Assembly (NCBI RefSeq): GCF_053078305.1
Contig: NZ_CP166879.1
Direction: 5' to 3' (one strand)
Length of the DNA: 64,000 bases
Shown: in pieces, positions 33,564-37,982 of the stretch
Position numbering within the stretch: position 1 is the stretch's first letter
How the letters are laid out: every line of letters starts with the position of its first letter
Translations under genes and position numbers: made by a program
The notes under the pieces: model-generated
Databases searched by the model: none
The model's input: only the letters and a program-made list of their open reading frames with translations
What the model was told of the DNA's origin: nothing

Positions 33564-34343
33564 TTAGTAGCTGCTGGCGCTCTTACCGTCGCCGTGACCC
33601 AGCGCTTTCAGCAGGCTTGCCAGCAGGCTGGAAGCACCAAAGCGGTAGTGACGCGCATCAGCCCAGTCAGCACCGAACAGTTCATCTGCGATGGCGAGAT
33701 ATTTCTGCGCATCTTCCGCAGTACGCACGCCGCCCGCCGGTTTGAAACCAACGGTTTTTTCTACGCCCATATCACGGATCACTTCCATCATGATGCGCGC
33801 GCTTTCCGGCGTCGCGTTCACAGCCACTTTACCGGTAGAGGTTTTGATGAAGTCCGCACCCGCTTTGATGGAGATTTCAGACGCTTTACGGATCAGCGCT
33901 TCGTCTTTCAGTTCGCCGGTTTCGATGATCACTTTCAGCAGTACATTCGCTGCCGCGCAAGCCTCTTTACAGGCTTTCACAAGGTCAAAACCAACCTGCT
34001 CGTTACCCGCCATCAGCGCGCGGTACGGGAACACAACGTCAACTTCATCAGCACCGTAGGCGATTGCCGCACGGGTTTCTGCCAGCGCGATTTCGATGTC
34101 GTCGTTACCGTGTGGGAAGTTGGTTACCGTAGCAATACGGATTTCCGGGGTGCCCTGCTCTTTCAGTGTTTTGCGAGCAATCGGGATAAAGCGAGGATAG
34201 ATACAGATAGCGGCGGTATTGCCGACCGGGGTTTTGGCCTGATGACACAGAGCAATTACTTTCTCGTCGGTGTCGTCGTCATTCAGGGTGGTCAGGTCCA
34301 TCAATTTCAGTGCACGCAGGCTGCTTGCTTTCAGATCAGTCAT
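33564..34343 (-). CDS. deoC: Deoxyribose-phosphate aldolase DeoC
   Basis: ORF 33564..34367; start placed at [29 protein letters not shown] (259 aa). Confidence 0.97.
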
Positions 34344-34387
34344 TTCATTCTCCTGGCTTGTCGCCAATAAAATTCACCTTGCGAGTT

Positions 34388-34403
34388 TGTTAGTATTCTA
34401 ACA
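34388..34403. promoter_or_regulatory. DeoR operator, promoter-proximal (O2-like, at deoP2)
   Basis: Palindrome TGTTAGTATTCTAACA about 45 bp upstream of the deoC start; one position off the exact TGTTAGAATTCTAACA palindrome. Confidence 0.7.
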
Positions 34404-34600
34404 TCTACTCCGCAACACACTTCGATATACATCACAATTAAGGAAATCTACTTACAAGTTTGCATCACTGTAATGCGATCTGGTTCAAATAATTCACTTT
34501 CAAATGAATGCGTCAGTGGTGGCAAACGCATCAGGATCAAAGTGAACATCACGAAACTTCTTACAATGGCGCATCACCTTCGGCATAAAAGGAAAAGAAG

Positions 34601-36151
34601 ATGCCCACTTCTCATGAAAATGCACTGCAACAACGTTGCCAGCAAATTGTCACCAGCCCAGTGCTTAGCCCGGAGCAGAAGCGCCATTTTCTGGCACTGG
34701 AAGCAGAAAACAATCTGCCTTACCCACAGCTTCCTGCCGAAGCCCGCCGCGCGCTGGATGAAGGTGTAATCTGCGATATGTTTGAAGGTCATGCGCCGTA
34801 CAAACCGCGCTATGTCTTACCCGATTACGCCCGTTTTCTGGCGAACGGTTCCGAATGGCTGGAGCTGGAAGGCGCGAAAGATCTTGATGACGCACTCTCT
34901 CTGCTGACCATTCTTTACCACCACGTACCGTCGGTCACATCGATGCCGGTCTACCTGGGGCAACTGGATGCGTTGTTGCAACCGTATGTTAGAATTCTAA
35001 CACAAGACGAGATCGATGTTCGAATAAAACGTTTCTGGCGTTACCTCGACAGAACCCTGCCAGACGCCTTTATGCACGCCAATATCGGCCCGTCTGATTC
35101 GCCCATTACCCGCGCGATCTTACGTGCAGACGCAGAGTTGAAGCAGGTTTCACCGAACCTGACTTTTATCTACGATCCTGAAATCACCCCTGATGACCTG
35201 CTGCTGGAAGTGGCGAAGAACATCTGTGAATGTAGCAAACCGCACATCGCCAACGGTCCGGTGCATGATAAAATTTTCACAAAAGGGGGCTACGGGATTG
35301 TGAGCTGTTACAACTCACTGCCGCTGGCGGGTGGTGGCAGCACGCTGGTACGCCTTAACCTGAAAGCCATTGTCGAGCGCAGCGAATCGCTGGATGACTT
35401 CTTTACGCGCACTCTACCGCACTACTGCCAGCAGCAGATCGCCATCATCGATGCGCGGTGTGAATTCCTCTATCAACAATCACACTTCTTTGAGAATAGC
35501 TTCCTGGTGAAAGAAGGGCTGATTAACCCTGAACGTTTTGTGCCAATGTTTGGCATGTATGGGCTGGCGGAAGCGGTTAACTTGCTGTGTGAGAAAGAAG
35601 GGATTGCCGCGCGCTACGGTAAAGAAGCCGCCGCAAATGAAGTGGGTTATCGCATCAGCGCGCAACTGGCGGAGTTTGTCGCCAATACCCCCGTGAAATA
35701 TGGCTGGCAAAAACGCGCCATGTTACACGCACAGTCGGGGATCAGTTCCGATATCGGCACCACGCCGGGCGCGCGTTTGCCGTATGGCGATGAGCCAGAT
35801 CCGATCACCCATCTGCAAACTGTCGCCCCGCATCATGCTTATTATTATTCCGGCATCAGCGACATTCTGACGCTCGACGAAACCATCAAACGTAACCCGC
35901 AGGCACTGGTACAGCTTTGCCTCGGTGCCTTTAAAGCCGGAATGCGTGAATTTACCGCCAATGTCAGCGGTAACGATCTGGTTCGCGTTACCGGTTATAT
36001 GGTGCGTTTGTCGGATTTAGAAAAATATCGCGCCGAAGGTTCACGCACCAACACCACCTGGCTGGGCGAAGAAGCCGCACGCAACACTCGTATTCTGGAA
36101 CGCCAGCCGCGCGTGATAAGCCATGAACAGCAGATGCGCTTTAGTCAGTAA
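34601..36151 (+). CDS. yjjI: YjjI, predicted glycyl-radical enzyme-like protein (DUF3029)
   Basis: 516-aa ORF with a C-terminal RVTGY glycyl-radical-type motif; divergent from deoC; followed by an activase gene. Confidence 0.9.
34987..35002. promoter_or_regulatory. DeoR operator, distal (O1-like, at deoP1), lying inside the yjjI coding sequence
   Basis: Exact palindrome TGTTAGAATTCTAACA; centre is 599 bp from the centre of the 34388-34403 site. Confidence 0.75.
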
Positions 36152-36986
36152 GATTATCCCCTTCTCCTGCGTTGACGGGCCAGGCAGTCGTCTGGCTCTG
36201 TTTTTGCAGGGCTGCAATCTGCGCTGCAAAAACTGTCACAATCCGTGGACGATGGGACGTTGCAATGACTGTGGGGAGTGCGTGCCACAGTGTCCGCATC
36301 AGGCGTTGCAGATTGTTGACGGCAAAGTGGTGTGGAACGCTGTGGTCTGCGAGCAATGTGATACCTGCCTGAAGAGGTGTCCGCAACATGCCACGCCAAT
36401 GGCGCAATCCATGAGCGTGGATGAGGTGCTTAGCCATATCCGCAAAGCGGTGCTGTTTATTGAAGGGATAACGGTAAGCGGCGGCGAAGCCACGACCCAA
36501 CTGCCGTTTGTAGTGGCGCTGTTTACTGCCATCAAAAACGATCCGCAACTGTGCCATCTCACCTGCCTCGTGGACAGTAACGGTATGTTGAGCGAAACCG
36601 GCTGGGAAAAATTGCTCCCGGTGTGCGACGGCGCAATGCTCGATCTCAAAGCGTGGGGGAGCGAATGTCATCAACAATTAACCGGACGCGATAATCAGCA
36701 GATTAAGCGCAGCATCTGTTTGCTGGCAGAGCGCGGCAAGCTGGCGGAACTGCGTTTGCTGGTAATCCCTGGCCAGGTGGATTATTTGCAACACATCGAA
36801 GAACTGGCGGTGTTTATCAAGGGACTTGGCGATGTTCCGGTACGCCTGAACGCGTTTCATGCCCACGGCGTGTATGGCGAGGCGCAAAGCTGGGCGAGCG
36901 CCACGCCGGAAGACGTTGAGCCGTTGGCTGATGCGTTACGGGAGCGCGGGGTGAGCCGGTTAATATTTCCGGCGCTGTATTTGTGA
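36123..36986 (+). CDS. yjjW: YjjW, glycyl-radical enzyme activating protein (radical SAM)
   Basis: 287-aa ORF with CNLRCKNC radical-SAM cysteine triad and additional Cys clusters; overlaps the yjjI 3' end by 29 bp. Confidence 0.9.
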
Positions 36987-36989
36987 CAT

Positions 36990-37195
36990 GCCGGATACGG
37001 CCTACGGTTCGGCACAGACTTGTAGGCCTGATAAGACGCGTCAAGCGTCGCATCAGGCATTGTGCGCCAACTGCCGGATGCGGCGTGAACGCCTTATCCG
37101 GCCTACGGTTCGGCACAAACCTGTAGGCATGATAAGACGCGTTAAGCGTCGCATCAGGCATTATGCGCCGACTGCCGGATGCTGCCTACGAAGGG
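36990..37195. repeat. BIME/REP array (two near-identical ~100-bp units each containing paired REPs)
   Basis: GCCGGATACGGCCTACGGTTCGGCAC...TGTAGGCCTGATAAGACGCG...CGCATCAGGC repeated twice between yjjW and yjjV. Confidence 0.85.
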
Positions 37196-37199
37196 CAAA

Positions 37200-37982
37200 C
37201 TACCCACTAACGCTAAACACCGCATACGTATTATTAAGCAACACTTCGGCAATCTCATCTTCTGGTTCCGGGCGCAACTCGCAAAGCACGTCAAACACCC
37301 GCGCAGCCTGTTCCGGGCGGTTAGGCTGCCCCTGAAAGCCGTTGAGCGGCATATCCGGCGCGTCGGTTTCCAGCAACAACGATGCCAGCGGTAATTTTGC
37401 GATGACATCGCGGGTTTTACTGGCGCGTGGATAGGTGATAGTACCGCCTACGCCGATTTTGTAGCCCAGCTGTACAAACCGTTCAGCCTGTTGCTGGCTG
37501 CCAGAAAATCCGTGGACAACACCAGCACGCGGCAAATCGTGGCGTTTAAGATGCATCGCCAGTTTGTCGTGTGTGCGCCGTGAATGCAGGATCACCGGCA
37601 GATCGTAGCGTTTCGCCAGTTTCAGTTGTTCGTCGAGCAACCACTGCTGCCTCTCAAATTGCGGATCGTCGCCGAAGAGATCCAGACCGATCTCCCCCAC
37701 CGCCACCACCTTCGCCGGACGCCTTTCCAGCGCCTGCTGTAGCTGCTCAAGAGACACATCGCTATGTTTTTCCAACATACCAGGATGCAAGCCCAATGCG
37801 GCATACAGCGGCTGAAAATTTTCCGCTAACGCCTGCACGCGGGCAAAATTTGCCGCCTCGGTTGCCGGAACAATGATCTTGCCTACGCCCGCTTGTGCCG
37901 CGCGTTGCAGGCTAGCCTCTTCATCACCGCTAAACGGCGGAAAATCAAAATGGCAGTGGGTGTCGATAAAACGGCAAATCAA
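37200..37982 (-). CDS. yjjV: TatD-family metal-dependent DNase YjjV
   Basis: 260-aa ORF (MICRFIDTHCHFDFPPF...), TatD-type HxH motif; the start codon appears to be TTG. Confidence 0.9.
   Translation of the reverse strand: MICRFIDTHCHFDFPPFSGDEEASLQRAAQAGVGKIIVPATEAANFARVQALAENFQPLYAALGLHPGMLEKHSDVSLEQLQQALERRPAKVVAVGEIGLDLFGDDPQFERQQWLLDEQLKLAKRYDLPVILHSRRTHDKLAMHLKRHDLPRAGVVHGFSGSQQQAERFVQLGYKIGVGGTITYPRASKTRDVIAKLPLASLLLETDAPDMPLNGFQGQPNRPEQAARVFDVLCELRPEPEDEIAEVLLNNTYAVFSVSG

Follow-up and report, generated by a model that had tools for sequence, protein, structure and literature searches.

The YjjI–YjjW glycyl-radical enzyme and activase pair, its recurrent linkage to nucleoside genes and a possible ribosyl substrate

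The window analysed here, a stretch of 64,000 nucleotides of contig NZ_CP166879.1 (assembly GCF_053078305.1), carries yjjI and yjjW, which almost certainly form a true pair of glycyl-radical enzyme and activase. The genes themselves are already known, as core E. coli genes and as curated orphan families (TIGR04040/TIGR04041 and PF11230). What is new here is the recurrent linkage of yjjIW to nucleoside genes across lineages, together with the presence of the DeoR operators O1 and OE within the yjjI coding sequence, where they are kept only beside deo. A role of YjjI linked to nucleosides or pentoses is somewhat favoured by this material. The whole explanation, namely a radical system that is induced by FNR and acts on a nucleoside-derived ribosyl substrate, is one on which our confidence is evenly balanced. 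The pair is laid out as follows.

34601-36151, plus strand: yjjI coding sequence, encoding a 516-aa YjjI-family glycyl-radical enzyme
36123-36986, plus strand: yjjW coding sequence, encoding a 287-aa YjjW-family radical-SAM activase
36123-36151, plus strand: 29-nt overlap of the yjjI 3' end with the yjjW 5' end

These coordinates, including the 29-bp overlap that had been noticed earlier, are given by the list of open reading frames and by the RefSeq annotation of near-identical genomes. The identical overlap is found in Enterobacterales loci, Proteus and Providencia included, and may imply translational coupling of the two genes. YjjI matches PF11230 at E=1e-219 (730 bits against a Pfam cut-off of 23) and TIGR04040 at 784 bits (curated cut-off 498.3, model positions 1-497 covered), and YjjW matches TIGR04041 at 396.5 bits (curated cut-off 250.2). 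The original prediction described the pair as orphan, conserved and uncharacterised, which agrees with the curated family models and with current RefSeq and K-12 annotation; the existing biochemical assignment that it allowed for was not found, for either protein, in the searchable literature, the PDB or 2026 annotation. YjjI is also absent from the study of RNR-less E. coli, which was aerobic work. A PDB sequence search with YjjI alone returned only noise, and PFL and NrdD were reached from YjjI by profile search rather than by single sequence.

The yjjIW region is present in 5,422 of the 5,426 complete E. coli genomes, and the pair also occurs in Salmonella, Haemophilus-like bacteria, Gilliamella from the bee gut and numerous anaerobes of the gut that have not been cultured. 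The activase gene lies immediately 3' of yjjI in nearly every lineage sampled. Shortened products of 402-476 aa are found in some E. coli records, and some Pasteurellaceae-like contigs carry yjjI with no adjoining activase. Both observations would suit a decaying or non-catalytic remnant. Such a state is hardly credible for a region that is so nearly universal in E. coli, whose YjjI catalytic motifs show no variation from bacteria to an archaeon, whose expression is FNR-regulated and whose protein product has been detected.

The following elements were marked in YjjI.

34805-34828, plus strand: P69-R70-Y71-V-L-P74-D75-Y76, a motif characteristic of YjjI, with R70 and Y71 unchanged in all 159 homologues
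35303-35314, plus strand: Cys loop S235-C236-Y237-N238; the profile alignment places S235/C236 on PFL C418/C419
35351-35353, plus strand: codon of R251, an invariant Arg in the strand that follows the Cys loop; its aligned counterpart in PFL is R435 (vRlnl against ARANL)
35984-35998, plus strand: Gly loop R462-V463-T464-G465-Y466, aligned with PFL RVSGY; R462 and G465 are invariant (n=159)

The RVTGY motif had been described as the end of YjjI. The motif is there, with G465 as the predicted glycyl-radical site, and only the wording was loose, as it lies about 50 residues before the C-terminus, like that of other glycyl-radical enzymes. The alignment check proposed for this loop was run and did not refute it, since the Gly loop and the Cys loop both fall on their PFL counterparts. 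C236 is the predicted thiyl-radical cysteine and the sole invariant cysteine of the family (n=159). Within its loop, which sits between strands 231-234 and 238-241 of the YjjI model, S235, C236 and N238 never vary, and position 237 is tyrosine in 158 of the 159 sequences. The conservation set comprised 159 distinct YjjI sequences in 29 clusters at 70% identity. The P69-Y76 motif also served as a search pattern for the family. E62, R70, Y71, H159, S235, C236, N238, R251, E305, H376, Q378, D384, R392, R462 and G465 are invariant throughout the set, and K213 is lysine in 158 of 159. The invariant residues were counted towards a putatively isofunctional YjjI family.

The predicted fold of YjjI is the glycyl-radical/RNR barrel, a ten-stranded alpha/beta barrel in the model, and its closest fold by two methods is that of NrdD, at 13-17% sequence identity. 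An hhalign comparison of YjjI with a single NrdD sequence was weak, with the Cys loop about 8 residues out of register, and its use was confined to the N-terminal loop and to the strand that follows the Cys loop. In it, the P69-Y76 motif falls on the NrdD Cys175 loop at low confidence (67% probability). YjjI might on this basis be a class III RNR-like reductase that converts a ribosyl compound (a nucleoside, a ribose phosphate or a non-canonical nucleotide) to its 2-deoxy form with formate as reductant, and so feeds DeoC or salvage. Formate is plentiful in the conditions under which FNR acts, and the invariant Y71, placed at the second-cysteine loop of NrdD by the low-confidence alignment, is a conceivable hydrogen donor. 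We nevertheless consider this reductase quite unlikely. A second Cys, or a Met, is missing from the active site of YjjI: the stretch aligned with the NrdD C175 loop reads P-R-Y-V-L-P-D-Y, and V234 stands two residues before the thiyl cysteine where NrdD has Met, in an alignment of modest confidence. The sequence of 516 aa contains no C-terminal zinc-type CxxC...CxxC site, as no cysteine follows C440, and E. coli YjjI has no NRDD or ATP-cone Pfam match at E<=0.01; in some distant homologues, a precomputed PF13597 match stands beside PF11230, flagged as faint in L086-L088 and without that flag in L091 and L098. YjjI also lacks the NrdD allosteric specificity region, its Cys loop reads S-C-Y-N against G-C-R in E. 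coli NrdD, and YjjW, with its two-cluster ferredoxin insert, resembles PflA and not NrdG. E. coli nrdD mutants are known to be unable to grow under strict anaerobiosis, so that YjjI would supply no dNTPs.

A second comparison is with PFL. PflB and YjjI are alike in the RVxGY Gly loop, in the placement of C236 on C419 and in that of R251 on the pyruvate-binding R435; the best sequence-profile matches of the Cys- and Gly-loop regions are to PFL, and HI0521 was at one time entered in EcoGene as a homologue of pflB. It is however very improbable that YjjI is a formate-lyase for 2-keto acids, or a different C-C lyase of the PFL type with a carboxylate as substrate. The Cys-Cys pair that such a formate-lyase requires is missing, PFL C418 being replaced by Ser235 (invariant, n=159) to leave a single cysteine. 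PFL R176 aligns with a variable YjjI residue and has no equivalent, no PF02901 or PF01228 match lies above threshold, and the YjjI structure is nearer to NrdD than to PFL. The glycyl-radical 1,2-eliminases (glycerol/propanediol dehydratase, CutC, HypD and IslA) share with YjjI a single-cysteine radical chemistry, and their activases, which carry ferredoxin-like inserts, are the next-best NCBIfam matches of YjjW. In YjjI, the eliminase motif G-C-x-E, with its catalytic general-base Glu at Cys+2, gives way to S-C-Y-N with the invariant Asn238, and the PFL-like N-terminal half is absent. As eliminase-class members, YbiW and PflD would carry G-C-x-E; they are PFL-like proteins of 760-810 aa, whereas YjjI has 516 aa, Asn at Cys+2 and no PFL-like Pfam match.

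The activase shows three motifs.

36174-36191, plus strand: D18-G-P-G-S-R23, glycine-rich DGxGxR activase motif, aligned with PflA VDGPGIR
36213-36236, plus strand: C31-x3-C35-x2-C38, radical-SAM [4Fe-4S] motif, aligned with PflA CLMRCLYC
36261-36380, plus strand: two ferredoxin-type CxxCxxCxxxCP motifs, predicted to hold auxiliary [4Fe-4S] clusters (translation and Pfam Fer4)

The CxxxCxxC triad and the extra cysteine clusters that had been recognised in YjjW are thus both in place, the latter as C47/C50/C53/C57 and C76/C79/C82/C86. Pfam finds Radical_SAM in YjjW, and Fer4_9, Fer4_7 and Fer4 across residues 44-90. PflA structures match YjjW at E=4e-19, and the two proteins share DGPGxR, the CxxxCxxC region and the barrel, whereas PflA lacks the extra two-cluster ferredoxin domain. 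The short activases of distant lineages are also without this insert.

In the mechanism that we propose, YjjW would bind S-adenosylmethionine at the C31/C35/C38 [4Fe-4S] cluster, as its family membership suggests, and its two further clusters would relay electrons. A 5'-deoxyadenosyl radical made by YjjW would abstract hydrogen from G465 of YjjI, the glycyl radical would hand over to C236 on the opposing finger loop inside the NrdD-like ten-stranded barrel, and the C236 thiyl radical would abstract a substrate hydrogen. The neighbourhoods and the fold point to a ribosyl compound from nucleoside uptake or catabolism as the putative substrate, perhaps a nucleoside, perhaps a phosphorylated pentose like ribose-1-phosphate or ribose-5-phosphate. 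It would be held by the invariant or near-invariant basic and polar residues R70, K213, R251, R392, H159, H376, E62, E305 and D384. Because YjjI has one invariant Cys only, and no Cys-Cys, no Cys/Met pair and no Glu at Cys+2, a redox-neutral elimination or cleavage is favoured, and we think that a ribonucleotide-type reduction is less likely. Elimination or bond cleavage rather than reduction is the weakest step of the proposal and must itself be called doubtful. A precedent is set by YbiW and PflD, E. coli glycyl-radical lyases whose substrates are cyclic sugar phosphates: they open the rings of 1,5-anhydroglucitol-6-phosphate and 1,5-anhydromannitol-6-phosphate and so form 1-deoxyfructose-6-phosphate. 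We suggest, tentatively and with slightly less than even confidence, that YjjI founds a distinct class, an RNR-shaped radical lyase/dehydratase (or an unusual formate-dependent reductase) acting on a ribosyl compound.

A link of YjjI to nucleosides is suggested by gene neighbourhoods. A nucleoside-type gene lies within 5 kb of yjjIW, in differing gene orders, in 9 of 23 assessable clusters, an enrichment to be read against a background rate of 5-10% that is our own estimate and with the clusters not fully independent. The density of nucleoside genes is 0.095 per kb near yjjI vs 0.032 per kb at 5-10 kb. In locus L173, yjjI-yjjW-cdd-pdp-deoC-deoB-deoD are separated by gaps of only 8-18 bp, except for 176 bp before deoC; all products score above NCBIfam cut-offs, and a divergent Bmp-ABC operon lies alongside. 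Further arrangements are yjjI-yjjW-nupC-deoD (L109), Bmp-yjjI-yjjW-ATPase-permease-permease (L152), yjjIW-Bmp-ABC (L175), rihC, PfkB and deoD followed by yjjIW, MFS, Bmp and ABC (L099 and L136), rbsK-yjjIW with rihC further downstream (L176), add-nucleotidase-cdd-pdp-yjjIW in Gilliamella, and deoCABD divergent from yjjIW in Enterobacteriaceae and Hafnia. In all-against-all clustering of 1,436 neighbour ORFs, the specific families that recurred most often after the activase were the Bmp binding protein with its permease, together with DeoD, Pdp and PfkB/RbsK. Bmp-family proteins are not all nucleoside-specific, and their best NCBIfam match is a weak 'B6' model. Look-ups of exact proteins, and metagenomes scanned with a distant YjjI subgroup as the seed, supplied the distant loci; a scan of the genome collection with a narrower alignment gave best 80 loci that were nearly all from Enterobacterales. 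The hint of a nucleoside- or sugar-related reaction, raised earlier from the position beside deo, gains support from this recurrence in distant lineages. As for the RNR-like reductase, the linkage of yjjI to deoC in E. coli and L173 speaks for it, but many linked clusters, of the nupC-deoD and Bmp-only types, are without deoC.

No nucleoside gene was found nearby in 14 of the 23 assessable lineages, among them an archaeon, an actinobacterium, Vibrionaceae, Providencia and Proteus, as well as a Firmicute-like group of 17 members whose yjjIW adjoins ruvAB-queA-tgt. Proteus has kept the chromosomal position of yjjIW, with no deo beside it. In most distant lineages yjjIW forms a cassette of just two genes among unrelated neighbours, and the adjacency to deo within Enterobacteriaceae is inherited synteny, a single arrangement that is weak evidence by itself. 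In addition, yjjI shares an expression cluster with narG and further targets of FNR, and its annotation places it under anaerobic respiration. YjjI could on these grounds have nothing to do with nucleosides and fill another anaerobic role, for example in nitrate/nitrite respiration or on a common central metabolite, with the deo, nupC and Bmp neighbours reflecting synteny and chance. We judge this rather unlikely, because nucleoside genes surround YjjI proteins 37-65% identical to that of E. coli in at least 8 different orders, the operon of L173 is uninterrupted, no other functional theme recurs in the unbiased clustering of the 1,436 neighbour ORFs, and co-expression with nar is expected of any FNR-activated gene.

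For the regulation of yjjI, the following sites are relevant (no strand is assigned where none is given).

34388-34403: DeoR operator O2 at deoP2, an exact 16-mer, kept in genera with adjacent deo
34421-34436 and 34474-34489: two CRP (CytR-flanking) sites of deoP2
34475-34488: second candidate FNR site, overlapping the CRP-2 site
34527-34540, plus strand: candidate FNR site CGCATCAGGATCAA, of which only the GGATCAA part is conserved
34562-34567, plus strand: predicted -10 hexamer TACAAT of the yjjI promoter; T-A-x-A-x-T is invariant in 11 genera
34987-35002: DeoR operator O1, the perfect palindrome TGTTAGAATTCTAACA, inside the yjjI ORF (codons V-R-I-L-T)
35266-35281: OE-like DeoR operator inside the yjjI ORF

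On the minus strand, deoC begins with its ATG at 34343, at a distance of 257 bp from that of yjjI. The original prediction placed the pair divergent to, and overlapping, the deo control region; the relation is in fact closer than was stated, as two DeoR operators lie within the yjjI ORF. The operator spacing, 599 bp from O2 to O1 and 279 bp from O1 to OE, agrees with the classical deo layout. O1 is found at offset +386 with 0-1 mismatch in 16 of 16 genera with adjacent deo and is missing in 6 of 6 genera without it, and the OE-like site at offset +665 is likewise kept only where deo adjoins. Relative to the predicted yjjI start, the CRP sites stand 45-150 bp upstream, and O2, O1 and OE bracket yjjI or lie within it; TGTGATGTATATCGAA has been reported as a CRP ChIP site for yjjI/deoC (PMC4287617).

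Activation of yjjI by FNR has been reported, with an aerobic/anaerobic ratio of 0.098 (about 10-fold), and Yersinia shows anaerobic induction likewise. In our proposal, FNR is the switch that turns on the E. coli pair anaerobically. Co-expression of yjjI with nitrate-respiration genes is seen in published data, and the 'nitrogen assimilation' reading of a bicluster study was rejected, the pattern being put down to control by FNR in common. The FNR ChIP peak near 34502-34508, about 30 bp from the GGATCAA candidate, falls between two equal 7-of-10 matches centred at 34481.5 and 34533.5, either of which may be the site. GGATCAA is invariant in 11 genera amid otherwise variable sequence, and TACAAT follows 21 bp downstream, implying a predicted transcription start near 34575. 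The yjjI promoter lies between the DeoR operators O2 and O1 and adjoins the CRP/CytR sites of deoP2, and additional control by deoxyribose-5-phosphate and cytidine is therefore predicted.

To our knowledge, YjjI is apparently the last E. coli glycyl-radical enzyme without a reaction, YbiW and PflD now being assigned, and the question is decades old in the best-studied bacterium. Linkage to nucleoside transporters, phosphorylases, hydrolases and DeoB/DeoC narrows the substrates to about 12 purchasable compounds and also predicts a regulatory phenotype involving FNR and DeoR/CytR. If YjjI does found a distinct class of this kind, the breakdown of nucleosides and pentoses by anaerobic bacteria of the gut and of other hosts would gain a hitherto unrecognised step that is sensitive to oxygen. 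If, moreover, an RNR-like fold acts on a catabolic ribosyl substrate, YjjI would connect ribonucleotide reductases with catabolic radical enzymes in evolution, with a bearing on how the two diverged.

The genes yjjI and yjjW encode a glycyl-radical enzyme and its radical-SAM activase, respectively:

34601-36151, plus strand, yjjI, encoding 516 aa
36123-36986, plus strand, yjjW, encoding 287 aa

The original prediction of an orphan enzyme/activase pair is real and was correctly interpreted. These coordinates agree with the predicted 29-nt gene overlap, which is kept across Enterobacterales, including Proteus and Providencia. The window is E. coli chromosome; its region 34300-37200 is present at ≥80% coverage in 5,422 of 5,426 complete E. 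coli genomes, where it is annotated as deoC, yjjI, yjjW, and yjjV; the K-12 counterparts of the pair are b4380 and b4379. As an object, yjjIW is already known, namely as a curated and named orphan family. The description as conserved but functionally uncharacterised still applies, since the literature searched yielded no functional study of either protein and the NCBIfam models of both (June 2026) are still typed as hypothetical equivalogs. K-12 annotation still calls YjjI a DUF3029 protein, and a computational paper guessed "nitrogen metabolism" for yjjI from co-expression with nar genes.

In some E. coli records (protein clusters P0011, P0076, and P0111) the YjjI product is 402-476 aa long, not 516 aa, and one 452-aa form occurs on 176 contigs; these forms point to truncation or a differently called start in some lineages. 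Between yjjW and yjjV, which are convergent, the gap (36990-37185) is filled by two direct repeats of 95 nt each, 89% identical and 101 nt apart, that look like REP/BIME-type palindromic units.

Family assignment is strong for both proteins. YjjI matches PF11230 (E=1e-219) and TIGR04040 (784 bits, cut-off 498), and YjjW matches TIGR04041 (396 bits, cut-off 250), followed by the activases of hydroxyproline dehydratase, PFL, sulfopropanediol dehydratase, and CutC. The cysteine triad and the extra clusters predicted for YjjW were both found: its DGPGSR motif and C31x3C35x2C38 align to PflA structures (E=4e-19), and two CxxCxxCxxxCP ferredoxin motifs lie at C47-C57 and C76-C86. This two-cluster insert is kept in enterobacterial and many Firmicute-like activases (280-294 aa). 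In distant lineages the activases have 247-262 aa (L082 9557-10309, L086 9621-10364, L096 2785-3528, and L109 9160-9948, L-numbers being loci of YjjI homologues), and the Fer4 insert is absent from the Pfam calls of L082, L086, and L096, the three with calls; the auxiliary clusters are thus not universal in the YjjW family.

A PDB search with the YjjI sequence alone returned no detectable relative. Chains of PFL, YbiW, HPAD, and NrdD were matched with a profile of 25 diverse homologues. The resulting alignment places RVTGY of YjjI (R462 to Y466) on RVSGY of PFL, so the Gly loop claimed from the motif is present on alignment, and it sets S235-C236 on C418-C419 and R251 on the pyruvate-binding R435 of PFL. 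The AlphaFold model, based on 46 sequences, has high confidence (pLDDT 92.5, pTM 0.91) and shows the expected series of barrel strands, with the S-C-Y-N loop between strands 231-234 and 238-241 and the Gly loop between strands 460-462 and 467-469. Homology allows the mechanism to be predicted safely as far as the thiyl radical, and the assignment of the fold next to NrdD is part of the added value of this analysis.

Conservation was assessed in 159 distinct full-length homologues (29 clusters at 70% identity). Invariant positions are E62, R70, Y71, G120, H159, N186, S235, C236, N238, R251, E305, H376, Q378, G380, D384, R392, R462, and G465, and K213 is lysine in 158 of 159. Because these residues are invariant, the family looks isofunctional. 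The predicted active site contains four conserved basic residues and is very polar overall, pointing to a substrate that is anionic or forms strong hydrogen bonds, for instance a sugar phosphate. The family is small (539 representatives at E≤1e-3 among 1.84 billion, many of them fragments), and is carried by at least 591 species genomes. Its hosts are Enterobacterales, Orbales, Vibrionaceae, and Ferrimonas, together with an Ilumatobacteraceae actinobacterium, an Oligoflexia genome, and an archaeal contig with eIF and NMD3 genes.

YjjI lies outside all three characterised mechanistic classes. PFL chemistry requires a Cys-Cys pair, and YjjI has Ser-Cys. Eliminases and decarboxylases have Glu at Cys+2, a position held in YjjI by the invariant Asn238. 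NrdD depends on a second cysteine together with a methionine and a zinc site at the C terminus; in contrast, C236 is the only invariant cysteine of YjjI, and no cysteine follows C440. In an alignment of modest confidence, Val234 occupies the methionine position and the hallmark motif P-R70-Y71-V-L-P-D-Y replaces the NrdD Cys175 loop. Recent work assigned YbiW and PflD as lyases that act on anhydro-sugar phosphates.

Expression of yjjI is linked to oxygen and may also be tied to control of the deo operon. Published data describe yjjI as a directly FNR-activated operon with an FNR ChIP peak between yjjI and deoC and anaerobic induction of approximately 10-fold for yjjI and 3.6-fold for yjjW, and anaerobic induction is likewise seen in Yersinia. 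Alignment of this intergenic region from 11 genera revealed an invariant GGATCAA (34534-34540) in variable surroundings and, 21 bp downstream, a conserved TAnAnT hexamer (34562-34567), an arrangement consistent with a class II FNR promoter whose predicted start is near 34575. GGATCAA is a candidate FNR site; the ChIP peak maps approximately 30 bp upstream of it, and a second weak match overlaps CRP-2, the second CRP site of deoP2. The DeoR operators are arranged as follows:

34388, DeoR operator O2, located by sequence match
34987-35002, DeoR operator O1, a perfect 16-bp palindrome within the yjjI reading frame, offset +386
35266-35281, OE-like DeoR operator within the yjjI reading frame, offset +665

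Spacings are 599 bp (O2-O1) and 279 bp (O1-OE); Dandanell and Hammer reportedly described the same arrangement. The proposed overlap of yjjI with the control region of the divergent deo operon is borne out by O1 and OE, and deoP1 transcription must consequently run antisense through the first ~390 nt of yjjI. Both operators are kept with 0-1 mismatch at identical offsets in 16/16 genera with deoCABD adjacent and are absent in 6/6 examined genera without it. O1 is coded as GTT-AGA-ATT-CTA-ACA, using the rare codons AGA and CTA; judged by its sequence, the O1/OE region is dual-use coding sequence. The predicted yjjI promoter lies inside the O2-O1 loop, and the centre of CRP-2 (34474-34489) is, by arithmetic, 93.5 bp from both the deoP2 start region and the predicted yjjI start, so that one CRP/CytR complex might serve both divergent promoters. 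It is thus reasonable to predict that DeoR and CytR control yjjI. Inside yjjI, approximately 55 bp from O1, a CRP site from published ChIP-seq data (CGTACCGTCGGTCACA, 34924-34939) is presumably part of deoP1 control. A study of intragenic sigma-54 binding lists yjjW (b4379).

The sole universal neighbour of yjjI is the activase gene, and among the others one theme, nucleoside genes, recurs. In Enterobacteriaceae and Hafnia, deoCABD is divergent from yjjIW. Gilliamella carries add, a nucleotidase gene, cdd, a pyrimidine-nucleoside phosphorylase gene, yjjI, and yjjW on a single strand. In the Pasteurellaceae-like L109, yjjI-yjjW-nupC-deoD lies between pgk and fba on one side and rplKA-rpoB on the other; the YjjI of this contig is only 41% identical to that of E. 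coli, and the Haemophilus pair HI0520/HI0521 agrees with this contig. In L173, yjjI-yjjW-cdd-pdp-deoC-deoB-deoD are separated by gaps of 8-18 bp, except for 176 bp before deoC; all products exceed their own NCBIfam cut-offs, and a divergent Bmp-type ABC transporter adjoins. In L152, an inserted yjjIW separates the gene for a Bmp binding protein from those for the ATPase and permeases, and in L175 and L168 it lies beside Bmp genes. L099 and L136 combine a RihC-like hydrolase, ribokinase-like PfkB, DeoD, yjjIW, an MFS transporter, and a Bmp-ABC system, and L176 has rbsK-yjjIW plus a RihC-like gene.

Ten loci from Kluyvera, Trabulsiella, Pseudocitrobacter, and related genera (L026, L037, L039, L040, L044, L046, L049, L055, L060, and L062) contain an insertion of ~1.4 kb directly downstream of yjjW, before yjjV. 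In L026 (Trabulsiella) and L044 (Kluyvera), it encodes, on the opposite strand, a NupC-family nucleoside permease that groups with the Pasteurellaceae-like nupC adjoining yjjIW. Two further Pasteurellaceae-like loci (L108 7116-8663, L115 10001-11542) have an intact yjjI, but where L109 has yjjW-nupC-deoD the next gene encodes an unrelated protein of 639 aa on the opposite strand; either the enzyme is an orphan with no activase encoded nearby, or these loci are deletion variants. A 511-aa cytoplasmic sulfatase/phosphodiesterase-family protein (alkaline-phosphatase superfamily) is encoded directly upstream of yjjI within the nucleoside-utilisation cluster of L099 (3806-5341) and L100 (1-897).

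A strict nucleoside gene was found within 5 kb of yjjI in 9 of 23 assessable clusters (each with at least 6 kb of flank), at a density threefold higher than at 5-10 kb; binomial P is 8e-6 to 2e-3 for an estimated background of 5-10% and clusters that are not fully independent. The other 14 of the 23 lack the link, among them the loci of the archaeon, the actinobacterium, Vibrionaceae, Proteus, and Providencia. When 1,436 neighbouring ORFs were clustered all against all in an unbiased way, the activase and generic ABC ATPases came first, followed by the binding protein and the permease of Bmp systems (5 clusters each), DeoD (4), Pdp/DeoA (3), and PfkB/RbsK (3); beyond these, ruvAB alone recurred as a set, in three related lineages. 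This cross-lineage result is new, and it raises the earlier hint at a nucleoside or sugar from a guess to a testable hypothesis.

To our knowledge, and by our own reckoning, YjjI is the only glycyl-radical enzyme of E. coli still to be assigned after YbiW and PflD. What is gained here is an NrdD-neighbouring fold, exclusion from three mechanistic classes, and neighbourhood evidence from multiple lineages. We consider a nucleoside or pentose fairly likely as the substrate class of YjjI. For the reaction type we favour, with low confidence, a redox-neutral step (elimination or cleavage) acting on a ribosyl compound or pentose phosphate rather than a reduction.
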